Shown here piece by piece: positions 4,099 through 64,000 of a stretch of 64,000 nucleotides of DNA. Location of the stretch: positions 40,316 to 104,315 of the forward strand of contig LBSX01000008.1 of the NCBI GenBank assembly GCA_000990355.1, written 5' to 3'. The stretch is from Candidatus Magasanikbacteria bacterium GW2011_GWC2_37_14. Lineage in GTDB: Bacteria; Patescibacteriota; Patescibacteriia; Magasanikbacterales; UBA922. The notes beneath the pieces were generated by a model, which was given only the letters and a program-made list of their open reading frames with translations, was not told the DNA's origin and ran no database searches. Made by a program: the position numbers and the translations under genes. Every line of letters begins with the position of its first letter. Position 1 is the first letter of the stretch.

Positions 4099-4103
4099 AG
4101 AAT

Positions 4104-4190
4104 TTCCCTCCCCTTTATAAGGGGAGGGCAGGGAGGGGTATTAAACACCTACCCCCTCTTAATCTCCCCCTTATAAATGGGGAGAAAACC
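4104..4190. repeat. GC-rich palindromic repeat cluster (family A: C4-5 TTwwAA G4-5 hairpins)
   Basis: ccctcccctttataaggggagggcagggaggggta ... ctcccccttataaatggggag. The same unit recurs at 8950, 12205, 13150, 16480, 51900, 56316, 62150 and 62518. Confidence 0.8.
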
Positions 4191-4990: not shown

Positions 4991-6049
4991 ATGACAAAAA
5001 AAGAAATAATAAACGACAAATTAAAAGCCGCCCAACCAGCCATTGACCAAATTCGCGAACGCTACGGAGAAGGCGCAATTATGAAATTTGGCGAATCCCG
5101 TAGTATGGACGTAGATACTGTGCCTACTGGTTCAATTTCCTTAGACATTGCTTTGGGAGTAAAAGGTGTACCCCGAGGTCGTATTATAGAAATTTTTGGG
5201 CCCGAAGCCTCGGGAAAAACTACTTTGGCCCAACATATTGTAGCCGAAGTACAAAAAATGGGTGGGGTGGCTGCTTTTGTGGATGCCGAACACGCCCTAG
5301 ACCCTGATTATGCTCGTAAAATTGGGGTAGATGTGGATAATTTATTAATTTCTCAACCAGATACAGGTGAACAAGCTTTGGAAATTGTGGAAACTTTGGT
5401 TCGTTCCGATGCAGTAGATGTAATTGTAATTGACTCGGTAGCGGCCTTGGTACCCAAGGCCGAAATCGAAGGCGAAATGGGGGATTCACACATGGGTTTA
5501 CAAGCCAGACTTATGAGCCAGGCACTACGTAAACTCACTGGTATTATCAGTAAAACCAACACCGTAGTAATTTTTATTAACCAAATTCGTCACAAAATTG
5601 GTGTTTTCTTTGGAAATCCAGAGACCACCACTGGCGGTAATGCTTTAAAATTTTATTGTTCAGTTCGCATCGAAGTTCGCCGCGCGGCACAAATCAAACA
5701 AGGTGAAAAAATTATTGGTAATCGTGTAAAAGCCAAGGTGGTAAAAAACAAAGTGGCTGCACCTTTCCGTACTACGGAATTTGATATTATGTACAACGAG
5801 GGCATATCTGTTTCTGGAGATTTGTTGGACACTGGTGTTTTACATAAAGTAGTCAACAAATCAGGCAATAGTTATTCCTTTGGCGAAGAAAAGATTGGTG
5901 TGGGTCGCGAAAAAGCCAAACAATATTTAAGAGAAAATCCAGCACTCATGAAAAAAATCCGCACAGCAATTTGGGAAGCAGTAGAACGTGGTGAAGCCCC
6001 CGAAGAAAGCGAAGGCGACAATGGCCCTAAAGAATTATTTGAAGAGTAA
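4991..6049 (+). CDS. recA: Recombinase RecA
   Basis: [13 protein letters not shown] Walker A, and L2 loop and other motifs collinear with RecA over 352 aa. Confidence 0.97.
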
Positions 6050-6090
6050 AAAACAACCCTGTACCGTTCTGGTACAGGGTTGTTTTTTAA
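6050..6090. terminator. Terminator hairpin (aaccctgtaccgttctggtacagggttgtttttt)
   Basis: Palindrome plus T-run after recA. The same GTAC-core hairpin recurs at 29048 and 29207. Confidence 0.7.
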
Positions 6091-8558: not shown

Positions 8559-8707
8559 ACAAATATTGGCGTCACCCCCGCGAAAGCGGGGGTCTTACCA
8601 ACAGTTAAAGATTCCCACCTTCGCGGGAATGACGCTATAAGTAATAACAGTATACCAAACTATTCATTAATTAAAAACCCCGCCTTAGTGGCGGGGTTTT
8701 GGCTTAT

Positions 8708-8884: not shown

Positions 8885-9020
8885 ATTTAAAACAAATTAT
8901 AAAATAATTACCCATACAGTATATCACATTATGAAGCTTTTGTCAAGAGTGACATTTTCCTCCCCCTACAAGGGGGAGGTGAGGAGGGGGTTTCGTTAGA
9001 AATCATACCAAATAACTACT

Positions 9021-12204: not shown

Positions 12205-12295
12205 TGTTTTCCTCCCCTTGGAAAGGGGAGGACAGGAGGGGTTGATTGTATTACTGTCAACCACCCCTCCCCCCTCCTTTCCAAGGAGGGGAAAC
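12205..12295. repeat. Family A GC-rich palindromic repeats (two inverted units)
   Basis: cctccccttggaaaggggagg ... cccctcccccctcctttccaaggagggg. Confidence 0.8.
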
Positions 12296-12303
12296 CAGAT
12301 TTG

Positions 12304-13086: not shown

Positions 13087-13248
13087 AGTGGGATTATTAT
13101 AACAGATTTTGATAAATTAAAAAAACCAGTTTTTTAAGCTGGTTTTTTGGGCTAACCCCTTCGCCCTTTGGGGCACCTCCCCTTCGTAAGGGGAGGTCAG
13201 ACACTGCCCCCTCCTTACGAAGGAGGGGTGGCCGGAGGCCGGGGTGGT

Positions 13249-23912: not shown

Positions 23913-24431
23913 ATGATTAAATTAATGAAAGCTTTAAATAATAAATTAGTAGTATTAGCTGTAGTAACTTTGGCTTTTGGTTTATTGCTTTTGCCAGGTT
24001 TAGCTTATGCAGAGATTGATGCTGCCTGTGCCGATGATACTGAATGTGACGCGGGTGAAATTTGTGGAGTAGATGAAACTTGCGTGGCCGACCCTTCTAC
24101 CTCAGGTTCAGACGCCAAAGACCCATTTGGAATAAATTATGGTGCTAAAACTGGTTTAGGTTCCAGAGATATTCGCGATACCATTGGTAGCATTATTAAT
24201 GTAGCTTTGGGTTTACTCGGCATTGTGGCCGTAGTAATCGTCTTGGCTGGTGGTTTTAAATGGATGACCTCTGGTGGTAATGAAGAAAAATCTACCGAAG
24301 CTCGCAAATTGATTTTTGCTGGTATTATTGGTTTGGCAATTATTTTGTCTGCCTATGCAATTTCTAGATTTGTCTTAACACAATTGTATACCGCAACAAG
24401 TACAAGTGGTACAGCTACCTATGGAGTATAA
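23913..24431 (+). CDS. TrbC/VirB2-like pilin-family protein; paralog 4
   Basis: Signal peptide, a short Cys/acidic segment, then IRDTIGSIINVALGLLGIVAVVIVLAGGFKWMTSGGNEEKSTEARKLIFAGIIGLAIILSAYAISRFV. Confidence 0.6.
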   Translation: MIKLMKALNNKLVVLAVVTLAFGLLLLPGLAYAEIDAACADDTECDAGEICGVDETCVADPSTSGSDAKDPFGINYGAKTGLGSRDIRDTIGSIINVALGLLGIVAVVIVLAGGFKWMTSGGNEEKSTEARKLIFAGIIGLAIILSAYAISRFVLTQLYTATSTSGTATYGV

Positions 24432-24559
24432 GTAGCATTTACATAGTCTCTTAAGTTAGGAGAAAATATAATGTTAACAAAAGGAATTATTACCCCCGAC
24501 AGATTGTCGGGGGTAATAATGGCCTTGATTGTAGGTTGTTATTTGTTATCAAGCTGTCA

Positions 24560-24645
24560 TTCCTTAGCGTCATTCCCGCGCAGGCGGGAATCTTACACTA
24601 GTTAAAAAGATTCCCGCCTGCGCGGGAATGACGCACGAAGAAAGG
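24560..24645. repeat. Family B palindromic repeat pair (GTCATTCCCGCGCAGGCGGGAAT ... ATTCCCGCCTGCGCGGGAATGACGC)
   Basis: Two inverted copies. Relatives occur at 4930, 8566, 11905, 52068 and 62226. Confidence 0.8.
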
Positions 24646-24693
24646 TGGCAATGACAAATTGATACTGAGTAATAAATTACAATAATTATATAT

Positions 24694-25095
24694 ATGAAAA
24701 AAGCATTTTTATTTTTAAGTCTAATGTTTGTTTTGTTATTTGGATTTTTTTGCACTTTTAAACCAGTTTTGGCACAAGGTCCTTATTTAGGTTTGGAATA
24801 TGGAGCCGACACTGGACTTTCTACCAAAGACATTCGTTTTACTACCGCCAGAATTATCAATACGGTGCTTGGCCTTTTGGGCATGGTTTCGGTAGTAATT
24901 ATTATTTATGCTGGTTTTAAATGGATGACTGCCGGTGGTAATGAAGAAAATGCCACTTCGGCCAGAAAAATTTTATTTTCGGCAGTAATCGGTTTGGTAA
25001 TAATTCTTAGTGCTTATTCTATTGCTCGTTATGTAAATACTAGTTTATACAAAGCGACTACTGGCTATGACTATGAGTCAATGATTATTGAATAG
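24694..25095 (+). CDS. TrbC/VirB2-like pilin-family protein; paralog 5
   Basis: IRFTTARIINTVLGLLGMVSVVIIIYAGFKWMTAGGNEENATSARKILFSAVIGLVIILSAYSIARYV. Confidence 0.6.
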   Translation: MKKAFLFLSLMFVLLFGFFCTFKPVLAQGPYLGLEYGADTGLSTKDIRFTTARIINTVLGLLGMVSVVIIIYAGFKWMTAGGNEENATSARKILFSAVIGLVIILSAYSIARYVNTSLYKATTGYDYESMIIE

Positions 25096-25100
25096 TATAT

Positions 25101-25622
25101 ATGAAAAAAATATTATTTTTATTAGTTGGTTTGGTAATAGTTTTTTCTCCAGTTTTGGCAATGGCGGAAGATTCTTATGGTTTGGAAACAACGGCTGGAG
25201 CTGCCAAATTAAAAAGTGATAAAGATTTGCCCACTTTGGTTGGTAATGTGGCTGGTACTGCACTTTCTTTGGTAGGTGTAATATTTTTTGCTTTAATGAT
25301 TTATGCTGGTTTTTTGTGGATGACTGCCCAAGGTAAAGAAGAACAAGCCAAAAAAGCTTTGGACACAATTATTGCCTGTATTATTGGTTTAATAATCATT
25401 TTGGCCGCTTATGCGATTACTAGATTTATTTTTAATAGTGCGGGGGTGGGAGGAAGTGGTACAGTGCCTCAAGAAAAACAGTGTGATGCTACATCTGTTG
25501 CTTCGTGTAAATCTAAACCTGAGAGTACTACAGCTTGTACTGAAACAGCAGGTGGGGTAACTACTAATGGGTTTTGTCATTTTGTAAACCCACAGTCAAA
25601 GAGTTGTAGTTGTGGAAATTAG
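25101..25622 (+). CDS. TrbC/VirB2-like pilin-family protein with a C-terminal Cys-rich tail; paralog 6
   Basis: Conserved domain LVGNVAGTALSLVGVIFFALMIYAGFLWMTAQGKEEQAKKALDTIIACIIGLIIILAAYAITRFI, then a 9-Cys tail. Confidence 0.6.
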   Translation: MKKILFLLVGLVIVFSPVLAMAEDSYGLETTAGAAKLKSDKDLPTLVGNVAGTALSLVGVIFFALMIYAGFLWMTAQGKEEQAKKALDTIIACIIGLIIILAAYAITRFIFNSAGVGGSGTVPQEKQCDATSVASCKSKPESTTACTETAGGVTTNGFCHFVNPQSKSCSCGN

Positions 25623-25632
25623 AATATTTATT

Positions 25633-26340
25633 ATGTTTTTTGGTTATAAAAAAATAATTTTAATTTTAGCAGTATTTTTGAATATATTTTTTTTTGGAAA
25701 CCAAGCTTTGGCAGCTTACACTTTTGATGACACTGGCCTGATGCTTGGTAAAGCCGCGGAGCCAACAGGAATGTTGGATACCAAAGTCACTGGGTCTTTG
25801 CCAGTAGTTTTGGGTTTTTGGGCCACAGTAGCATTTTCATTAGTAAGCATTGTCTTTTTTATTTTAATGTTTTATGCTGGTTTTTTGTGGATGACAGCGC
25901 GTGGTTCGGAAGAAGTGGTAACCAAAGCCAAGGGCATAATTACTATGGCCATAATTGGTTTGTTTGTACTCGTAGCCTCGTATGCAATTACCACCTTTAT
26001 TACTAGCAGTTTAGTTCCTGGTGTGGCTGGTAATAAAGCCGCTGGTACTGGTAATTTGGAAGTTGGGCCAAATAATCCCGAAGGTTGTTGTGTGGATTGG
26101 GTAGCCACCGATAGTCAGTGGTTTGGCGCAGTTGGTACCTTAAAAAAAGATAATGACGGTGGTTTTGTGGGAGTAAGTGCTTGCCGGATAACTACAAAGT
26201 CTGATTGTGAATTACAAGGTACAACAGAAACGGAAAGTGATGTGTTGGCTGGCCCCGAAGGTGTTGGTTATTGGGTATTTGATGAAGCTATAAAAGAAAA
26301 AGAGGCTTGTCAAAGTGCTTATTGTAAATTAGCAAATTAA
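25633..26340 (+). CDS. TrbC/VirB2-like pilin-family protein with a C-terminal Cys-rich domain; paralog 7
   Basis: Start moved to the ATG at 25633 because the track start is a GTG. Conserved domain, then a roughly 110-aa tail with 7 Cys. Confidence 0.55.
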   Translation: MFFGYKKIILILAVFLNIFFFGNQALAAYTFDDTGLMLGKAAEPTGMLDTKVTGSLPVVLGFWATVAFSLVSIVFFILMFYAGFLWMTARGSEEVVTKAKGIITMAIIGLFVLVASYAITTFITSSLVPGVAGNKAAGTGNLEVGPNNPEGCCVDWVATDSQWFGAVGTLKKDNDGGFVGVSACRITTKSDCELQGTTETESDVLAGPEGVGYWVFDEAIKEKEACQSAYCKLAN

Positions 26341-26349
26341 TAAAAAATT

Positions 26350-26715
26350 ATGAAAAAAATATTTATAACTCTGGCATTATTTACAATTTTGTTAACACCA
26401 GTTTTTGTTTTTTCTGCCAATACTGGTTTGGGTGCCTTAACAAAAAATTTAAGTGATACTGGCAAAGCCGCAGAAATAAGTGAAACTGGTACTTTGCAAG
26501 ATATTGTTGGTACAGGAATTGGAGCGGCCCTTACTTTGGTTGGATTAATTTTTATGATTTTAATGGTTTATGGTGGATATTTGTGGATGGTTGCGAGAGG
26601 TGCCGAAGAAATGATCACCAAGGCCAAGGGAATTATTACTGCTGCGATTATCGGTTTGGTAGTAGTAATTAGCGCCTATGCCATAACAGTATTTATTACA
26701 GGTAGGTTTCAGTAA
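26350..26715 (+). CDS. TrbC/VirB2-like pilin-family protein; paralog 8 (minimal form)
   Basis: Signal peptide plus a short linker plus the conserved domain only (121 aa). Confidence 0.6.
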   Translation: MKKIFITLALFTILLTPVFVFSANTGLGALTKNLSDTGKAAEISETGTLQDIVGTGIGAALTLVGLIFMILMVYGGYLWMVARGAEEMITKAKGIITAAIIGLVVVISAYAITVFITGRFQ

Positions 26716-26735
26716 TTAGTTTTATTTTAAATGAT

Positions 26736-27122
26736 ATGAATATAAAGAAAATAATTTTAATAGCCATCTTTAGTTTATTATTGTGTACCCCAGTATTGGC
26801 GAAATTAAATTTGGGCACAGGAATTGCTGGGCAGGCGGCGGTAAAAGCTGGTTATGAAGGAAATACTAGTGAAATAACTTTTTCGCAAAATATTGGTACA
26901 GTAATTAATGCCGCACTTTCGCTAGTGGGTGTAATATTTTTGGTTTTAATGGTTTATGCGGGATATTTGTGGATGACAGCACGTGGTTCGGAAGAAGAAA
27001 TTACCAAAGCCAAAGGAATTATTATTGCGGCCATGATTGGTTTAATTTTGGTGGTAGGTGCTTATAGTATTACTACTTTTGTGGTACCACGTATTTTGGC
27101 TAGTGGCGTCAAAACTCCCTAA
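26736..27122 (+). CDS. TrbC/VirB2-like pilin-family protein; paralog 9
   Basis: IGTVINAALSLVGVIFLVLMVYAGYLWMTARGSEEEITKAKGIIIAAMIGLILVVGAYSITTFV. About 75% identical to paralog 7 within this domain. Confidence 0.6.
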   Translation: MNIKKIILIAIFSLLLCTPVLAKLNLGTGIAGQAAVKAGYEGNTSEITFSQNIGTVINAALSLVGVIFLVLMVYAGYLWMTARGSEEEITKAKGIIIAAMIGLILVVGAYSITTFVVPRILASGVKTP

Positions 27123-27123
27123 T

Positions 27124-27531
27124 ATGAAAAAAATTGTTTTGTTAATAATTTTATTTGTTAGTCTAGGGTTATTCCCTTTGGCCTTGCAGGCTCAAGTAAA
27201 TAAAACTACGGGTGAAAAAATTATGGGGCAAGTAGGTGCTAGTGCCGAAAAGGCCGAAATTGGGGCGCCAGCAGATTTTAGAGTAGTTGTTACCAGAACC
27301 ATAAAAACTCTTCTTGAGACAGTTGGTGCAGTATTTATTATTTTAATAGTTTATGGCGGTTATACTTTTATTACTGCTGAGGGCGAAGAAGAAAAAGTAA
27401 CCAAAGGTTTAAATATAATCAAGCCAGCAATTATTGGTTTAATAATCATTTTGGCGGCTTATGGTATTACTTTGTATGTGGGCATACGGTTTACCCAAGC
27501 AGTAACTGAAGGGGCCACAATAATGCGTTAA
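27124..27531 (+). CDS. TrbC/VirB2-like pilin-family protein; paralog 10
   Basis: Start moved to the ATG at 27124 (MKKIVLLIIL). Conserved domain is present. Confidence 0.55.
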   Translation: MKKIVLLIILFVSLGLFPLALQAQVNKTTGEKIMGQVGASAEKAEIGAPADFRVVVTRTIKTLLETVGAVFIILIVYGGYTFITAEGEEEKVTKGLNIIKPAIIGLIIILAAYGITLYVGIRFTQAVTEGATIMR

Positions 27532-27536
27532 AATTT

Positions 27537-28046
27537 ATGAAAAAGTTCTTATATCTTATTTTGCTAGCCGTTTTTTTAAGTGGTTTATTTACTTTTGTCC
27601 AAGTTAAGGCAGCTGATTATCGTGCTGATACCATGAATCAACTTTCCGCTACCGCTGGTGCCAATGGAGCCAACTATGGCACAGCGCGTGATCCACGAGC
27701 AATTGTGGCCCAAGTAATAAAAATTTTTTTGGGTACAGTAGGAATATTGTTTGTGGCTTACACGGTTTATGCTGGGTTTATAATACTAACTTCTGGTGGT
27801 AATGAAGAAAAAGTTGGAAAAGCCAAAAAAATGATTTTTTATGCGACCATAGGTATTATAATTACTCTCTCTGCTTATGGGATAGTTTTGTTTGTACAAA
27901 GATATTTTGTAGGAGATACTGGCGGTTTAAATGGCAGTGCTAGTTATGGGCCGTGGTATGTAGAAGGAAGTTTAAACGTGGATGAGAGTAATAGTCAATT
28001 TTATTCTCCAGATCCCTTGGAACAAGATACACTTATTTATCACTAA
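27537..28046 (+). CDS. TrbC/VirB2-like pilin-family protein; paralog 11
   Basis: VAQVIKIFLGTVGILFVAYTVYAGFIILTSGGNEEKVGKAKKMIFYATIGIIITLSAYGIVLFV, followed by a terminator hairpin (catccgcctcatcggcggatg plus T-run). Confidence 0.6.
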   Translation: MKKFLYLILLAVFLSGLFTFVQVKAADYRADTMNQLSATAGANGANYGTARDPRAIVAQVIKIFLGTVGILFVAYTVYAGFIILTSGGNEEKVGKAKKMIFYATIGIIITLSAYGIVLFVQRYFVGDTGGLNGSASYGPWYVEGSLNVDESNSQFYSPDPLEQDTLIYH

Positions 28047-28983: not shown

Positions 28984-29082
28984 AGAGTTTGAGTTAAGAA
29001 TTATTACTTATAGCTTAATAGTACTATCTTTTGCTTTTTTGGTCAATAAAAATCCTGTACCAGATTGGTACAGGGTTTTTTG

Positions 29083-29154
29083 TGACCCCGCTTGGAATCG
29101 AACCAAGATCTAAAGCTTAGAAGGCTTCTATTCTATCCATTGAACTACGAGGCC
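29083..29154 (-). tRNA. tRNA-Arg (anticodon TCT)
   Basis: Hand-folded: acceptor GGCCTCG/CGGGGTC with two G-U pairs, anticodon loop CTTCTAA, T-arm CTTGG-TTCGATT-CCAAG, discriminator A. Confidence 0.7.
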
Positions 29155-29231: not shown

Positions 29232-30182
29232 TTACTCATTCTTCTTGCCATGAAATTTTTTGTAAATATTTTTTAGTTCTTTGTCGGTAATGTGGGTATA
29301 AATTTGGGTGGTGGTAATTGAAGAATGGCCAAGCATAGTTTGTACACTGCGAATGTCGGCGCCATTTTGCAATAAATCTGTTGCATAAGAATGGCGTAAG
29401 GTATGTGGAGTAACCAGTTTGGTAATACCAGCAGCTTTGGCATATTTTTGTACCAAACGTTGCACCGAGCGAGTGGTTAAGGATTCATCTTTACTGTTTT
29501 TTTCTTTTTTACTTTTTAAATCATGACAAATAAATAAAAAAGGATTAAGATCCTTGCGAACTTCTAAATATTTTTTTAACCAATATTTAGCTTGGTCGGA
29601 CAAAAAGACTACACGGGATTTCCGGCCTTTACCGGTAACCGTAAATTCTTCGCGAGCAAGATTAATACTATCTTTCTTTAAATTAACTAATTCGGATACA
29701 CGGAGGCCAGTAGAGAATAGCATTTCCAAAATTGCTTTGTCACGGTATTTGATTAAGCCACTAGAATTTTCATTTAACTCTGCTTGTTTAAGTGGAGCTT
29801 CTAAAAGACGACTCAGGTCACTACCTTCCAAAAAAGAAACTTCACGGTCGGGCATTTTCATTAATTCTATTTTTTCGGCTGATAAAGTTTTTACATCACG
29901 TTTGGCTAAATATTTTAAAAAGGAGCGCAAGGCGATTAAATGATAATTTTGGGTGTTCTTTTTTAAAGGTTCACCATGAACATCTGCTAAGCGATTAAGC
30001 CACAAGCGAAATTGGCGAACTTTTTCGGCGTCAATATTTTCGGCTTTATTTTCTGGACCAAACCAAGTGGTAAACCTTTTTAAATAAAAATCATAATTGC
30101 GTAAAGTTTTATCACTACGGTTGCGTTCAATTTCCAGGTATTCTAAATATTCGATTAAGTATTTTGAAATATTTGTTGGCAT
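29232..30182 (-). CDS. Tyrosine site-specific recombinase, XerC/XerD family
   Basis: C-terminal catalytic motif HTLRHSYATDLLQNGADIRSVQTMLGHSSITTTQIYTHI (R-H-R-Y tetrad present) and an N-terminal core-binding domain. Start set to Met35 (MPTNISKY). Confidence 0.85.
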   Translation of the reverse strand: MPTNISKYLIEYLEYLEIERNRSDKTLRNYDFYLKRFTTWFGPENKAENIDAEKVRQFRLWLNRLADVHGEPLKKNTQNYHLIALRSFLKYLAKRDVKTLSAEKIELMKMPDREVSFLEGSDLSRLLEAPLKQAELNENSSGLIKYRDKAILEMLFSTGLRVSELVNLKKDSINLAREEFTVTGKGRKSRVVFLSDQAKYWLKKYLEVRKDLNPFLFICHDLKSKKEKNSKDESLTTRSVQRLVQKYAKAAGITKLVTPHTLRHSYATDLLQNGADIRSVQTMLGHSSITTTQIYTHITDKELKNIYKKFHGKKNE

Positions 30183-30660
30183 AGTAGTCTTTAAAATTTG
30201 CTTTATTATATTGTACGACACTATTGACCCTTCTGTCAAAATCAGGGTCAAGTTGAGCCGGGCCGAAACTTGACAAAAGGTCAATTTTGTGGTATACTAA
30301 ATACATAAAATTAACAAATATAAATTTTTTCATGCCAAAATCCTTAACAGTCGCAGATTGTTGGACATTTCAAAAATTTATATTTGTTAATTTAAAAATC
30401 ATGTAGAGCTTTTTGGGCCACGTGATAAGCAAAAACAAATACAAAAATAAATATGCAAAACCAAAATTGGGGAGCGGTCAACCCACAACAAGCCGCAGAT
30501 TCTTTGGTATATTATTATCTCTTGGCCGGTATCTCTGTTTTGGTAGCGGTTTTTTTGTTCCTACCAAAAAGTTCAACAGGGTGAAATAAAAGTACAATTT
30601 ATTTAGGAGGAAATTTTGCCACCTTGAAAGGGTGGCTTTTATGGCGTATAATATAATTAT

Positions 30661-31362: not shown

Positions 31363-31365
31363 AAC

Positions 31366-31470
31366 CCCCCCAGCTCCACTACGTTGCGCCGGGCAGGCTA
31401 GTAAACTTTGTTAAAAAGATAGTCTAGCTTGCCAGGCGCAGTGAAACGGAGACTGGGGGGGGATTGTTTT
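31366..31470. repeat. Family C 95-nt long-hairpin element, copy 1 (cccccc-arm-loop-arm-gggggg)
   Basis: Identical, apart from one loop base, to 62564-62665. Lies between convergent genes. Confidence 0.85.
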
Positions 31471-32445
31471 TTAGATTAATTTAGGTTTTATATTTGAATT
31501 TTTATTAATCAATTTTGTTATTTGATTTTTATTTAATAGTCCTGCTTGGGCGCCGATTTTGGATATAACACCAGCTGCATTGGCTGTACCCCAGCACATG
31601 GCTTGGTATAAATCTTCATTGTAATGCCAACTTGCTAAAAAGCCACTGGCGTAAGCATCGCCGGCACCGGTTTTTTCTACCAAAGTTGTGGGGTAAAGTG
31701 CCATTTTGTATAACTCTTGGCCATTGGAAGCATAAGAACCATTGGTACTGTCAGTCAAAACAATGTTTTTTACTCCTAGTTTGTGTAGTCTTTTTATTAG
31801 CTCTGTTATTTTGCCATTATTGCCAGTAATTTTTTCTGCTTCTTCTTTATTTACAAATAATAAATCAGTAAATTTTAAAATCTTTTTAAAATTATTTAAA
31901 CTGTTTTTTAATTGTAAAGATCCAGGGTTTACTGCTAATTTGGTATTTGGGTATTTTGCCAAATATTTAATAATTTTTTCTTGTACTCGTGTAAAGTTTT
32001 GTCCCAAAGAAGTGTAATACAGCCATTGGCTTTGGGGAATAGTAGCGTTTTGGTAAGTTTTTTTGGTGTAATAAGACAAAGTGGTGCGTTCGCCTAAATA
32101 ATTTAAAACAATGGAATAACGAGTTTCTTGGTTCGGCAACATTTTTACATATTCGGTATTCACATTTGTTTTTTCCAAACCCTCTTTAATTACTAGACCA
32201 TTCAAATCATCCCCCAGTTCGGTTAGTAAAGCAGTTTTTAAACCAAGTTTTTGTGTGCCAACGGCGACATTGCAAGCATTGCCACCCAAAGCTTGGTCAG
32301 TTTTTTTTACGGGAATTTTGTCGGCATAATTTAAACAAAGCAAACAATGTTCTCTTTTTATGTCGCATTGTAATTTTGCTTCTTCATGGTCAATAACCAC
32401 AAAAGTATCGACCATTGAGTCACCAATAGTAGTAATGTTAAACAT
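31471..32445 (-). CDS. PfkB-family carbohydrate kinase (ribokinase-like)
   Basis: N-terminal GDSMVDTF and C-terminal GAGDAYASGFLASW anion-hole motifs. Confidence 0.75.
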   Translation of the reverse strand: MFNITTIGDSMVDTFVVIDHEEAKLQCDIKREHCLLCLNYADKIPVKKTDQALGGNACNVAVGTQKLGLKTALLTELGDDLNGLVIKEGLEKTNVNTEYVKMLPNQETRYSIVLNYLGERTTLSYYTKKTYQNATIPQSQWLYYTSLGQNFTRVQEKIIKYLAKYPNTKLAVNPGSLQLKNSLNNFKKILKFTDLLFVNKEEAEKITGNNGKITELIKRLHKLGVKNIVLTDSTNGSYASNGQELYKMALYPTTLVEKTGAGDAYASGFLASWHYNEDLYQAMCWGTANAAGVISKIGAQAGLLNKNQITKLINKNSNIKPKLI

Positions 32446-47962: not shown

Positions 47963-48409
47963 TGTCAGGCATTCATAAATGAATTGCACCACGTCCGCAT
48001 ACGTTTGGACCTCTGGGTATAACAATAAAGTTAAACGACAATGTTTACTTACATAAAATTATACTTAGATTAACCAGGCGTGGCAATTGACTTTTCTGTT
48101 AAATTGATCGCTTGAAGGCGATCTTTTTTTCCACGAAAAGTGGCGTAATGAAATAAGCCACTTGGAGTAGGAACCGCGTGATGAGCAAAGCGAATTTTAC
48201 GCGGTAAACACGGTGCCACATCGTGGCAGGCTCTCAGATCACAGACAGCGTAGATAAAAATCTAAATTGTCTGTGGCAAGAGATTTAGGGATAGAACTTT
48301 GACAATTCAAATTAAAAATATTAAATAGGTCAATTCAAAAATAAGCGGTCTTATTAAAGATTTAATAAGATAAAAAGAAAGCACAATTGTGTGTTTTCGT
48401 AGTATGCAT

Positions 48410-51690
<3,281 letters not shown>

Positions 51691-51894: not shown

Positions 51895-52340
51895 ATGGCG
51901 GTGTTTTTTTTGTCTCCTCCTTACGAAGGAGGAGTACCCCGACGTCGCAGTCGGGGGGAGGTGGTTAGCAAATCCCCTCTAGAGAGGGGTGTCGCGTCAG
52001 AAGCGACGGGGTGTGTTGGTTTCCCTCCCCTACGAGGGGAGGATTAGGGTGGGGTTTCGTCACCGTCGTCTGTCATTCCTGCGCAGGCAAGAATCCACCC
52101 GCCTGCCATCGCTATGCTCTAGCATTAGCGGGCAGGGAAATCGTCCAATTACTCTTACCTCCATGGAGCAAAAACTTCGCGCTAAACAAACACTGCGGAA
52201 AATTTAGGACTCGTCATTCGTTTTTGCTCGTGCGAGCCTAAAGAGGCTCTAGACGAGCAAATCCTTCTTCGCTATAGAGCTCCGAAGGAACACTCTTCCT
52301 CGCCTCTAAATTTTTACCTTGTGTTTGTGCGCGCGTGAGT
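51895..52340. repeat. Dense cluster of GC-rich hairpin repeats (families A and B plus further palindromes) downstream of 5S
   Basis: ctcctccttacgaaggaggag, ccccgacgtcgcagtcgggg, cccctctagagagggg, tccctcccctacgaggggagga, gtcattcctgcgcaggcaagaat, tttgctcgt...acgagcaaa, and GTTTGTGCGCGCGTGA (also present at 62487). Confidence 0.75.
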
Positions 52341-55859: not shown

Positions 55860-56735
55860 CTAATTCTTTTTTTGTTTTAAAATATTTATAAAATATATTA
55901 TTCCCCACACAACAAACGGCACACTCAACCATTGCCCGGTGGTTAAGCCAAAATAAGTTGGAAATTCTTTAACAAATTCAATTATAAAACGAGAAGAAAA
56001 ATAGAGTATTAAAAATAAATGAAAGATAAAAAGATTTGGTAGTTTTTCTTTGTCGCGTAAAGTTACACCACGCGACACGTATTTTTTATAACTAAAATAT
56101 AGAATTATAAATATTATAAGTAACGCCAGTGCTTCGTAGAGCTGTGCAGGGTGGCGTAGGACAGGGTTTAACTCGTAATTGGGGAAATATACACCCCAGG
56201 GTAAATTAGTGGCTCTGCCGACAATTTCCGAGTTAAAGAAATTTCCAATCCTAATAAACATTGCCAAAAGTGGGATAGGAATGATAAGGATGTCCAGAAT
56301 TTTACGCCAATCTAATAACCCCCCCCGCCCCCCTTTTTCAAGGGGGGTAACGTCGTTTTTCCCCCTTAATAAAGGGGGATTAAGGGGGTTGTTGGCTTTT
56401 ATTTTGATGAATAAAAAAAATGTTAATAACAAACCAATTGTCATACCATGGCTAGAAAGCCCACCATGATTAATCATAATCATTTCTAGCGGATGGGTAA
56501 AATAAAAAGTAGGCTCGTAAAATAAAATTTCTCCTAGTCGAGCGCCAATTAGTCCGCCAACTATTAGCCAAGTACATAAATCATAAGCCAAATTTATTGG
56601 ATATTTTTTTTGTTTAAATAATTTAGCAATAATATAAATTGCTATTCCGACACCGAGAGCCAAAAAAAGACCGTACCAGCGGATGGTGATAAAACTGTAT
56701 TGGAATAGGATTGGATTAAGATTATTAGTAATCAT
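55860..56735 (-). CDS. lgt: Prolipoprotein diacylglyceryl transferase carrying an in-frame, repeat-encoded 25-aa insertion
   Basis: Lgt signature FIRIGNFFNSEIVGRATNLPWGVYFP and an N-terminal WYGLFLALGVGIAIYI. The residues NPLNPPLLRGKNDVTPLEKGGRGG are encoded by a family A repeat at 56316-56390. Confidence 0.8.
   Translation of the reverse strand: MITNNLNPILFQYSFITIRWYGLFLALGVGIAIYIIAKLFKQKKYPINLAYDLCTWLIVGGLIGARLGEILFYEPTFYFTHPLEMIMINHGGLSSHGMTIGLLLTFFLFIKIKANNPLNPPLLRGKNDVTPLEKGGRGGLLDWRKILDILIIPIPLLAMFIRIGNFFNSEIVGRATNLPWGVYFPNYELNPVLRHPAQLYEALALLIIFIILYFSYKKYVSRGVTLRDKEKLPNLFIFHLFLILYFSSRFIIEFVKEFPTYFGLTTGQWLSVPFVVWGIIYFINILKQKKN
56316..56390. repeat. Family A GC-rich palindromic repeat located inside the lgt coding sequence
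   Basis: cccccctttttcaaggggggtaacgtcgtttttcccccttaataaagggggattaagggggtt. Compare 62518-62552, cctcccctttataaggggaggattaaggaggggt. Confidence 0.8.
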
Positions 56736-61778: not shown

Positions 61779-62147
61779 ATGTTAATAAAAAAATTTGCCA
61801 ATCAAAAAGAAATTATTGCTGGAGACAATTGTCTTTTAAGGGAGTTTATTAACGTGGAACATGGTGATAAAGTAGACTGTCGTTATAGTTTGGCTTGGTC
61901 CAAGATGCCTGTTACAAAAAAAACCTGGAAGCACACCATGAAAACTTCGGAAGTATATTTTATTTTAAAAGGCAAAGGCAAAATGTATATAAATGATGAA
62001 GCAGAAGAGGTTGGTGTATATGATACAGTTTATATTCCACCTAATGCTACTCAATATATAGAAAATATTGGTGAAGAAGATTTAGAATTTATTTGTATTG
62101 TTGACCCGGCTTGGAGAAAAGAAGACGAAGTTGTTTTGGAGAGTTAG
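61779..62147 (+). CDS. Cupin-domain protein
   Basis: Cupin motifs 1 and 2 (G(X)5HXH-like region ...KHTMKTSEVYFILKGKGKM... and a PPNATQYIEN region), 122 aa. Confidence 0.55.
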   Translation: MLIKKFANQKEIIAGDNCLLREFINVEHGDKVDCRYSLAWSKMPVTKKTWKHTMKTSEVYFILKGKGKMYINDEAEEVGVYDTVYIPPNATQYIENIGEEDLEFICIVDPAWRKEDEVVLES

Positions 62148-62149
62148 GC

Positions 62150-62290
62150 CGTCATCCCCCTCTTGACCTCGAGGGGGTAGGCCTGCCCGACATGCCGTCA
62201 AGGCAGGCGGGGGGAGTTTGCCGGAGCTGTTTGTCATTCCTGTCCCGTAACCTGGTACGGGATAAACTCCGGCAGGAATCCAGAAATCGT
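62150..62290. repeat. Family A plus family B palindromic repeats
   Basis: ccccctcttgacctcgagggggtaggcctgcc...ggcaggcggggggag, and gtcattcctgtcccgtaacctggtacgggataaactccggcaggaatcc. Confidence 0.75.
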
Positions 62291-62563
62291 CTAATAAAAT
62301 CAAAACTACTTTTCAGTAGTTTTTGTTTTATATTCATTTTACTTTTTGTCACCAAAAAGTAACAAAAAGTGCCGGGGTAAAAAACTCGCGCCTTCAACTA
62401 AAGATTAAAGTATTATCTATTCAAGCCCTGGGCGCTCAAACAGTTTTACCCCTGGACCCCAGGTTTTTTCTGTGGTGTGTAAATGTTTGTGCGCGCGTGA
62501 TTGAGTGTTTCTTTTTCCTCCCCTTTATAAGGGGAGGATTAAGGAGGGGTATTTTACAAACAA

Positions 62564-62665
62564 AAAATCCCCCAGCTCCACTACGTTGCGCCGGGCAGGC
62601 TAGTAAACTTTATTAAAAAGATAGTCTAGCTTGCCAGGCGCAGTGAAACGGAGACTGGGGATTTT
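62564..62665. repeat. Family C 95-nt long-hairpin element, copy 2
   Basis: cccccagctccactacgttgcgccgggcaggctagtaaactttattaaaaagatagtctagcttgccaggcgcagtgaaacggagactgggg. One mismatch relative to copy 1. Confidence 0.85.
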
Positions 62666-62820
62666 TTATTTTCAACTATTTACAAAATAATTTTATAAAC
62701 ACTTGAGTCACCCTTGGTCCTCCAAGGCCAAGGTGCTCCTTCTTGTGAAAGGAAAAGATCGATAAAGAATGTGGGTTTTTTGCCCCGGAGCTGGGGCGGG
62801 TGGTGGGGTGGGGTAGCAGT

Positions 62821-63879
62821 TTAGCGGGGCTCCGGCGTGGTGGGGATGTCGCCACCGCTGAAGAACTTGTTCGGGTCGGCGAGCATCGCCTGGGTCGGTG
62901 GCGTTGTGGGGTGAAGTTCGTACTCCACCACGACCTCATTGCCGACGCGTTTCCAGGTGATGTGTCTCTTGTCCAGGACGTGGTTCACGGCGAAGGGGAA
63001 CTTCGGGTTCATCCACACCATCACCTCGTCGCCCTCCTTGAGCTGCTCGCCCCGTTCGCCCGGCTTGTGGATGTAGACGACTGTCGACATGCTCGGCATG
63101 TTCACCACGGCCACCAGGCGTTCCGTGCTCTCGATGGTGCGGGCCTGGAGCTTGATGAAGCACCAGCCCGCGTCTTCCATGCGACGGCGGAGGGACATGT
63201 ACCAGCTCACCTGGTGGACGTTCGACGGCCACTCCACGAAGTCGTTCTGGAGCGGCAACATCTCGAATTTCGGCGGGAACCGGTAGGGCTCTCCACCCAG
63301 CATGGCCCAGCGCAGGGCGCAGGGTATGGTGAGCGGGTAGTTCCTGGACCAGAGGTGCCGTCGGAAGCATTCCTTCTTGCTTCCGTCGCCGTCGGCCAGA
63401 CCCTTGAGTCCCTGGACGATCAGGGGGATCGTCCGCCAGGTGGGCACGAGGCGGAGCGAGAGCCCCACCTGAAGGCTCTGGGGCAGGTTGAGACGACGGA
63501 GAACTTCGATCGTTTGCGAGTTGACGACGCTCTCCAACCGATCCACCGCCCGGATGGCGATCGGCCAGGCATCGTGGTTGCCCAGCGAGGCGCGGATGTG
63601 CTCATAGATGATGAGCACCTTCTCGGGCTGTACCGAGGCGATCTCGAGGAGCATGTGCACCAGGTCGGAAAAACCGAATTTGGCCCAGGCCAGCGCGTTT
63701 TCCAGGAAGGCGCGCTGGAACTCGCGGCAGCAGGGCTCGTCGCCGAGACACGCCCTTCTGATCGTTTCGTCGTTCGCACCCGCTTCGATCAGCCAGCTGA
63801 AGACCTGGTGGATGTCCATCCCTTCTTCGGTCTCGAGCTTGGCCCACATCTCGCGCAGGAGCTCGGGCTGGATGGCCAT
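62821..63879 (-). CDS. Unknown 352-aa protein on a high-GC (about 62%) island
   Basis: RBS GAGGAGG-5-ATG on the minus strand. The translation is complex and W/R-rich. All plus-strand ORFs in this block are Arg/His/Gly-rich antisense shadows. Confidence 0.55.
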   Translation of the reverse strand: MAIQPELLREMWAKLETEEGMDIHQVFSWLIEAGANDETIRRACLGDEPCCREFQRAFLENALAWAKFGFSDLVHMLLEIASVQPEKVLIIYEHIRASLGNHDAWPIAIRAVDRLESVVNSQTIEVLRRLNLPQSLQVGLSLRLVPTWRTIPLIVQGLKGLADGDGSKKECFRRHLWSRNYPLTIPCALRWAMLGGEPYRFPPKFEMLPLQNDFVEWPSNVHQVSWYMSLRRRMEDAGWCFIKLQARTIESTERLVAVVNMPSMSTVVYIHKPGERGEQLKEGDEVMVWMNPKFPFAVNHVLDKRHITWKRVGNEVVVEYELHPTTPPTQAMLADPNKFFSGGDIPTTPEPR

Positions 63880-64000
63880 GTTGGCCTCCTCTCAGCAACC
63901 AAGGGCTTCTGTTCCCAGGGTTGCAAAGCAAAAATTGAGCAGTCGGACACCCTTGTGCCAACCGCAGGTTCTTTAACTAAACGTTATTTTCGCAAATAAC

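Follow-up and report, generated by a model that had tools for sequence, protein, structure and literature searches.

A putative mobile palindromic repeat at the tips of bidirectional terminator hairpins in Candidatus Magasanikbacteria

Rickettsia palindromic elements (RPE) occur in intergenic DNA and inside functional genes, RNA genes included. They are imperfect palindromes of ~100 nt, dispersed in a small, AT-rich, host-dependent genome, and have no transposase of their own. Here, we describe a repeat broadly comparable to these, which we call Family C. It lies in a 64,000-nt stretch (hereafter, the window) of contig LBSX01000008.1. The source is Candidatus Magasanikbacteria GW2011_GWC2_37_14, a groundwater metagenome-assembled genome (MAG) of the Candidate Phyla Radiation (CPR; Patescibacteria). 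Proteins encoded beside the repeat are 100% identical to proteins of that genome. We consider it probable, though well short of certain, that Family C is a small non-autonomous mobile palindromic repeat of Ca. Magasanikbacteria. It would reside at hairpin tips and serve as an oversized bidirectional terminator. This interpretation is drawn from sequence comparison and predicted folds.

The likeness to RPE extends further. GC-rich palindromes of sibling families lie in frame within two housekeeping genes, lgt and PrmC, and a homologue of Family C lies in a 23S rRNA gene. Unlike RPE, to which it has no sequence similarity, Family C is never seen inside an open reading frame (ORF), is tied to the terminators of convergent genes and has an apparently low copy number. 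ERIC/IRU sequences and the Correia elements (CREE) of Neisseria are, like Family C, imperfect palindromes of ~100–150 nt that are intergenic, transcribed and form long RNA hairpins. Of these, Correia elements are RNase III substrates and can also work as terminators. Unlike Family C, which has no consistent duplication, they duplicate a TA target and end in defined inverted repeats. Both groups belong to a different phylum and have no sequence similarity to Family C. The GC clusters of yeast and other AT-rich mitochondria are mobile GC-rich palindromes that occupy intergenic spacers and, as optional inserts, the variable portions of rRNA genes. These share with Family C the setting of a GC-rich palindrome in an AT-rich genome (the window is ~36% GC) but are organellar, shorter (30–50 nt) and unrelated in sequence. 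Repetitive extragenic palindromes and the mosaic elements built from them (REP/BIME) are 20–40-nt palindromes that have a conserved GTAG head, occur in hundreds of copies and are associated with a RAYT (Y1 transposase) gene. Family C is 91 nt long and occurs twice in 64 kb, with GTAG inside its minus-strand arm and not at the head; RAYT was not searched for genome-wide. Finally, typical intrinsic terminators have roughly 5 to 14 pairs in the stem and 3–8 nt in the loop. Family C has the form of a bidirectional intrinsic terminator, with an A-tract, a GC-rich stem and a T-tract between convergent genes, and a U-tract 0–3 nt after the stem on both strands. It departs from typical terminators in its ~30 bp, its 22-nt loop, its folding energy of -55 to -68 kcal/mol and the presence of the same sequence at unrelated loci.

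An initial annotation of the window, made from the letters alone, described two near-identical long-hairpin elements that differ at one loop position. Comparison of both copies confirmed this. Each has a 91-nt core, CCCCAGCTCC...GGAGACTGGGG, and the cores differ only by a loop base: G at 31410 in copy 1 and A at 62612 in copy 2. The order of parts was also as first described, namely an A-rich tract, C-run, arm, AT-rich loop, complementary arm, G-run and T-rich tract. The dimensions needed correction. The arms are 34 nt instead of ~40 nt, and the loop, which includes a 4-bp inner stem, is 22 nt instead of 19 nt. The runs at the base of the stem comprise 7 C and 8 G in copy 1, which is lengthened by extra C (31365–31367) and extra G (31459–31462), and 5 C and 4 G in copy 2. 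In copy 2, the inverted repeat has arms at 62558–62603 and 62626–62671. Diagnostic 16–19-mers of Family C matched the window only at the two copies, with the 16-mer matching both arms. The expectation from shuffled sequence was 0.00–0.04, and chance is excluded. Beyond the A-tract and T-tract, the flanks of the two copies are unrelated. Hence, the pair did not arise by segmental duplication.

A stable hairpin was predicted for each strand. The RNA folds of copy 1 have energies of -68.4 kcal/mol (plus strand, z -9.8) and -56.6 kcal/mol (minus strand, z -8.1). Those of copy 2 have energies of -55.2 kcal/mol (plus strand, z -9.1) and -55.4 kcal/mol (minus strand, z -7.5). No shuffled sequence (0/200) folded as well. 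For DNA, the folding energies of both strands are between about -28 and -33 kcal/mol. A bulged A and a G/A mismatch make the hairpin imperfect, and about 20 of its pairs are stacked in the upper stem. Three G-U pairs in the plus-strand RNA become C-A mismatches on the minus strand, which accounts for the stronger plus-strand fold of copy 1. All six reading frames of Family C contain stop codons. Consistent with this, and unlike its sibling families, it has not been seen within ORFs.

Three more loci emerged from a pattern scan of metagenome contigs: L010 (Ga0076113_111), L011 (Ga0209211_10007091) and L012 (Ga0076113_109). The L010 core is identical to that of copy 1, and the L011 core to that of copy 2. 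At L012 the core is 92 nt, with one extra base and point changes in the loop and 3' arm. Similarity among the five copies has abrupt limits at the C-run and G-run, which range in length from 4 to 8 depending on the copy. Convergent genes flank every copy, and the functions of these genes are unrelated. The neighbours encode a P-type ATPase and a zinc-finger protein (L012), PrmC and a DUF3048 protein (L011), or are an unknown ORF and a GC-rich ORF (L010). The metagenome loci share no orthologous genes with the window. Since copy 2 and L010 are homologous loci, the five copies represent four independent contexts. We built a covariance model from the five intergenic copies and ran it on the window and ~200 kb of related loci. 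Copy 1 scored 120.9 bits on the plus strand and 60 on the minus strand; copy 2 scored 121.4 bits. No further copy was found in this material, except for a relative in an rRNA gene (L006, described below) and a weak match at 24553–24649, where there is a long hairpin of another kind. Among the matches listed in our collection scans, Family C thus amounts to at least five intergenic copies and at least one rRNA copy. Nothing that would indicate a phage or plasmid origin came from two scans of viral contigs or from BLAST searches of phages and plasmids.

The initial annotation had likened the element to a giant terminator hairpin between convergent genes, and this holds for all five intergenic copies. 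The 12-nt segments upstream of the copies contain 9, 9, 9, 5 and 9 A, and the 12-nt segments downstream contain 8, 10, 9, 8 and 9 T. A GC-rich stem followed immediately by a U-tract is found on both strands. Ordinary terminators of this genome have the same arrangement of A-tract, stem and T-tract (for example, 6047–6089 and 29041–29087). We therefore picture Family C as a body of 83–91 nt that would occupy the tip of an otherwise ordinary bidirectional terminator, formed by the A-tract, a short C-rich/G-rich stem and the T-tract. RNA from either converging gene would fold into the ~30-bp hairpin, with the U-tract 0–3 nt past the base of the G/C-run. Given a stable hairpin and a U-tract on both strands, Family C most likely still terminates in both directions, and so probably stops transcription arriving from either side. 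With its run of stacked upper-stem pairs, the RNA is also a plausible substrate for RNase III.

A small RNA had been proposed as another identity for the element. A free-standing small RNA gene is unlikely at copy 1, where the flanking stop codons leave no non-coding room for a promoter. Near copy 2 there are only weak promoter-like matches, and we rejected an independent small RNA gene. No Rfam family was matched at gathering threshold, either in the gathering search or in two permissive searches. The best sub-threshold match scored 40.8 bits against a threshold of 100, and such matches were to generic long-hairpin microRNA-precursor models.

Related genomes show the site of copy 1 without the repeat. 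In two of them (L019 and L020), a PfkB gene 70% identical to that beside copy 1 is followed by CAAAAATCCGTCCC-AACTCAAT-CGGGACGGATTTTTT, a second AT-rich hairpin and the end of the converging 233-aa gene (...YLERKMTKKIL*). At L018, where PfkB is 81% identical, the gene is followed by AAAAAAAATTAATCCCGGG-TTCA-TCCCGGGATTTTTTAT, also written AATCCCGGG-TTCA-TCCCGGGATTTTTT. L014 carries an orthologue of the 233-aa gene (82% identical) and the second hairpin as in L019. Family C was not found at any of these four loci. Read in the PfkB direction, the window instead has an A-tract, C8, the Family C body, G7 and a T-tract. Since the relatives carry a small terminator and no Family C, the repeat is a derived insertion or replacement at the window site. 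The convergent pair would ancestrally have had a small bidirectional terminator. Two further loci (L015 and L016, ~60% protein identity) were uninformative, because 3–5 additional genes separate the counterparts of the two neighbours of copy 1.

Copy 2 and L010 provide a different comparison. A larger segmental duplication, which would have undermined the case for mobility, is absent between copies 1 and 2. It is partly present here, where the two loci share a module of ~258 nt. Within it, the element is identical at 90/91 positions and the adjoining 154-nt flank at 132/154 (85.7%). Under equal rates, the probability of this contrast is ~1e-5. Together with the small terminators at the orthologous site in two relatives, this upholds the earlier suggestion of recent mobility. 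We propose that Family C would arrive by insertion into, or replacement of, an existing terminator hairpin.

Several observations weigh against this interpretation. None of the five copies shares a consistent target-site duplication; their flanks are inverted and not direct repeats, and AT or ATAT can be read as a duplication in only two of the five. The empty-site comparison is no clean insertion, as ~130 nt are replaced by 108 nt. The 64-kb window contains no transposase with matching ends. Neither the window nor ~200 kb of loci contains an isolated Family C terminus within 3 mismatches. Copy number is low, at 2 per 64 kb, with 5 intergenic copies found in all. The copies may also represent fewer genomes than contigs, as a strain with 99.86% identity to the window is present in Ga0209211, and L011 may be from the same species. 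Furthermore, the hairpin is far larger than termination requires, and a simple terminator consensus scan did not flag it. The scan demands a loop of 3–8 nt and so missed Family C, whose loop is outside this rule.

These points bear on whether Family C is a miniature inverted-repeat transposable element (MITE), as had been suggested. Terminal inverted repeats are present, but trivially so in an element that is an imperfect palindrome over its full length, with arms of 34 nt. It is also present or absent at orthologous sites (the window versus L018 and L019/L020). Lacking a target duplication, Family C is not a MITE in the strict sense, and no parent element was seen in the 64 kb. The term applies only loosely. 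An oversize body, sites without the repeat in relatives, sharp boundaries and a homologue in rRNA together fit a selfish palindrome.

The rRNA relative came from a scan for a 19-mer seed, using one genome per species. Nine loci were among the matches listed. Eight are chance occurrences with no similarity past the 19–21-nt seed. The ninth, L006 (CAYFPJ010000027.1), was identified as a 23S rRNA gene by its match to Rfam LSU (1538.7 bits). It comes from a MAG labelled as an uncultured Gammaproteobacteria. However, its 23S sequence is 82% identical to that of the window and 73% identical to that of E. coli. Being closer to Magasanikbacteria, the contig is probably mis-binned or the MAG mislabelled. 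On this sequence evidence, the organism is probably another CPR-like bacterium.

The seed in L006 lies inside a 108-nt hairpin (-98.5 kcal/mol) with a 22-bp perfect central stem. Likeness to Family C continues outside the seed, with CCCC.GCT.CACT in the 5' arm and CTAGC.TGCC.GGCGCAG in the 3' arm, followed further out by AGTGAA...CGGAG.C.GGGG. Similarity scores outside the seed were 18 (upstream) and 28 (downstream), compared with at most 12 and 14 in the eight control loci. The covariance model scored L006 at 49.7 bits (E 8e-11). In the basal stem, Family C and L006 differ by a compensatory change of A-U to G-C and a one-sided change of C-G to U-G, and have one U-G pair in common. L006 has an extra helical segment on both arms, and its loop differs from that of Family C.

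The L006 hairpin replaces the tip of a variable helix between E. coli positions 1701 and 1772. This region corresponds to helix 63 of domain IV. At the same place, the window has a short hairpin in its own 23S rRNA gene (Table 1), and that gene has no sequence in common with the intergenic hairpins. Hence, helix 63 of the window and of L006 form a second empty and filled pair, with the body once more between a C-run and a G-run. Intervening sequences (IVSs) of the classical kind occur in helices 9, 25 and 45. L006 resembles them in having a long, near-perfect hairpin added at a 23S helix tip; it differs in being in helix 63. The location of an IVS applies to the L006 homologue only, as both window copies are intergenic and outside rRNA. 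The 22-bp perfect stem of L006 is compatible with excision by RNase III, as judged from the modelled fold. A diverged relative of Family C may thus have done at the tip of helix 63 what Family C did at terminators, and would act there like an IVS or expansion segment. Such bodies would persist where extra helix length is tolerated, namely at the tips of terminators and of peripheral rRNA helices.

A more specific proposal is that Family C, and perhaps other GC-rich palindromes of the lineage, insert specifically into the apical loops of C-run/G-run stem-loops. Both filled and empty pairs (the terminator in the window versus L018/L019, and helix 63 in L006 versus the window) fit such loop insertion. 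Even so, we regard the proposal as tentative and rather doubtful.

Other explanations can be set against a mobile palindrome. Family C could be a selected cis-acting RNA, such as a 3'-untranslated-region stabiliser, an RNase III site or a protein-binding hairpin, with the sequence itself conserved and not mobile. The almost invariant 22-nt AT-rich loop would be expected of such an RNA, but it is not kept across the wider family since the loop of the rRNA homologue differs. Three G-U pairs favour the plus-strand fold of copy 1 (-68.4 kcal/mol, against -56.6 kcal/mol on the minus strand). Yet the strands of copy 2 fold equally well, and a strand asymmetry inherited from one master copy is a single observation. 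The U-G pair in common with the rRNA copy, and the A-U to G-C compensation that keeps the basal stem, are further points in favour, as is an element 90/91 identical where the flank is 85.7%. However, the neighbouring genes share no function, orthologous sites in relatives manage without Family C and no Rfam family scored above threshold. We judge a selected RNA of this kind unlikely. A different route begins in rRNA, with the intergenic copies as captured descendants of a CPR helix-63 expansion or intervening sequence. The L006 version is the longest and most perfect palindrome. In comparison, the intergenic copies look decayed, since two C in the 3' arm have become T and one has become A. They also look shortened, as one helical segment is absent on both arms. 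The G-U pairs work on the rRNA sense strand. Short uncharacterised inserts are abundant in CPR 23S genes (PMC11270868). Nevertheless, only the hairpin is shared, with no flanking rRNA sequence, and the 23S gene of the window has no such insert. The perfection of the L006 palindrome points to a recent DNA-level event in that organism and not to an old rRNA feature. There is one rRNA example, and spread to at least four unrelated intergenic sites would still need mobility. An origin in rRNA is, in our estimation, quite improbable.

Copy 2 and L010 are at the 3' ends of GC-rich gene cassettes. These have a common promoter (TTGACA-17-TATAAT) and 3' flank around unrelated GC-rich ORFs, and the L011 copy adjoins a small GC-rich ORF. 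Family C might accordingly be a recombination site, an integron attC or other att, that marks the end of such cassettes. The bulged A and G/A mismatch of the hairpin are also as in attC sites. Even so, copy 1 and L012 have no such cassette, and an rRNA copy cannot serve as a cassette att site. No integron integrase is nearby. The sole tyrosine recombinase in the vicinity (29232–30284) is a syntenic Xer-type protein also present in a relative that lacks Family C. Furthermore, Family C has GTT in the 5' arm and AAC in the 3' arm, the reverse of attC R''/R' (RYYYAAC 5', GTTRRRY 3'). We rejected attC identity on this motif order, and consider a recombination site of any sort very improbable. A mobile palindrome remains the interpretation that we favour. 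Features of the window that bear on it are collected in Table 1.

Table 1. Coordinates of Family C and associated features in the window
Feature	Position	Strand	Remarks
Conserved hypothetical gene, 233 aa	30661–31362	+	Stop codon 31360–31362, 2 nt ahead of the copy 1 C-run
Copy 1 with A-tract and T-tract	31363–31470	+	Fills the whole gap between convergent stop codons
Copy 1 core, 91 nt	31368–31458	+	5' arm 31368–31401, loop 31402–31423, 3' arm 31424–31458
PfkB-family kinase gene, converging on copy 1	31471–32445	-	Stop codon 31471–31473 overlaps the T-tract
23S helix-63 hairpin of the window (CCCCAC-GCAA-GTGGGG, 16 nt)	50277–50292	+	Unoccupied counterpart of the L006 site
Cupin gene, copy 2 side	61779–62147	+	
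Copy 2 with A-tract (62558–62568) and T-tract (62661–62673)	62558–62673	+	
Copy 2 core, 91 nt	62570–62660	+	5' arm 62570–62603, loop 62604–62625, 3' arm 62626–62660
Conserved 3' flank of GC-rich minus-strand gene cassette	62661–62813	-	Adjoins copy 2; 85.7% identical in L010
GC-rich ORFan, 352 aa, converging on copy 2	62821–63879	-	

Of the genes beside copy 1, that for the 233-aa protein has 114 homologues, in Magasanikbacteria. Other hairpin repeats, likewise GC-rich, take up ~420 nt between the cupin gene and copy 2. In this region, short-read assemblies from the same population are interrupted at 62200/62214 and at 62711. Contiguity around copy 2 therefore rests on the assembly of the window and on the homologous arrangement in L010. 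One short-read assembly also breaks inside Family C, as expected of a repeat.

The cassette next to copy 2 spans 62790–64000 and a further 34 nt past the end of the window, seen in L017. It has 54% GC in a 36% GC genome. Its ORF has GC3-rich codons and an AGGAGG ribosome-binding site, and its perfect TTGACA-17-TATAAT promoter is just past the window end. The 352-aa product had no Pfam match and no homologue among 5.8 billion proteins. At L010, the same promoter and 3' flank surround an unrelated GC-rich ORF that is lipoprotein-like; the GC-rich ORF beside the L011 copy encodes 68 aa. These look like moron-like expression cassettes with variable cargo.

Short GC-rich hairpin repeats also form intergenic arrays, at 4103–4188, 8955–8995, 12205–12300, 13170–13240, 51900–52140 and 62150–62560. 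Examples of these repeat families are TTTCCTCCCCTT..AAGGGGAGG, GTCATTCC.GCG...GC.GGAATC and CCTCCTTACGAAGGAGG. These arrays, too, are points at which short-read assemblies from this population are interrupted. A non-coding repeat of ~175 nt occurs at 52164–52338 (also 62470–62500) and twice in L011 (2996–3172 and 13807–13888), with 92% identity between the window and L011. One motif within this repeat, TGTTTGTGCGCGCGTGA.TGAGTGTT, recurs upstream of copy 2.

Sibling palindromes are found within genes. The lgt ORF (prolipoprotein diacylglyceryl transferase; 55860–56735, minus strand) has an in-frame GC-rich palindrome at 56309–56398 that adds ...NPLNPPLLRGKNDVTPLEKGGRGGL... to the protein. In-frame insertion of this type is behaviour known for RPE. 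In L011, the gene for the PrmC/HemK methyltransferase (1371–2435) has in-frame GC-rich palindromes of the TTTCCTCCCC...GGGGAGG families at ~1820–1890 and 2040–2126. The window also has a second family of long hairpins, at 24553–24649 and 8569–8635, with a 28-bp perfect stem at 24567–24634. These hairpins are built from the short repeat GTCATTCCCGCG..., duplicated in inverted orientation. The motif (A)GTTAAA(AA)GAT is present both in their loop and in that of Family C, and the exact 11-mer GTTAAAAAGAT occurs in the window at positions 24601 and 31410 only.

The 23S rRNA gene of the window (48400–51687) is 3288 nt long, and a group-I-intron-like insert at 50983–51295 makes up most of the extra length. 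The insert matched Rfam RF00028 with 41.6 bits (E 1.9e-8), below the gathering score of 50. No 16S rRNA gene adjoins the 23S–5S pair in the window. Elsewhere, at 24216–27887, there are eight tandem paralogous units with start-to-start distances of 386–696 nt and 60–71% identity over 150 nt. The syntenic region of L016 carries T4SS_pilin genes. Small secreted or pilin-like proteins are the probable products of the eight-unit array.

CPR genomes are usually called streamlined. The window shows several families of palindromic repeats. Among the top-ranked literature results for MITE and REP terms, small palindromic repeats in CPR/Patescibacteria had not been described. A practical consequence is that short-read assemblies of this population break at these repeats. 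Tsurumaki et al. 2024 found inserts in 82% of the 23S genes of CPR (PMC11270868). These are often short (<200 bp) and unclassified, and some were suggested to be IVSs (PMC11270868). If loop insertion is correct, one process would make giant terminators and lengthen rRNA helix tips, and would be a concrete DNA-level source of the intervening sequences and expansion segments of CPR rRNA. If the rRNA link holds in more genomes, it would join selfish intergenic hairpins and the unexplained short inserts of CPR rRNA.

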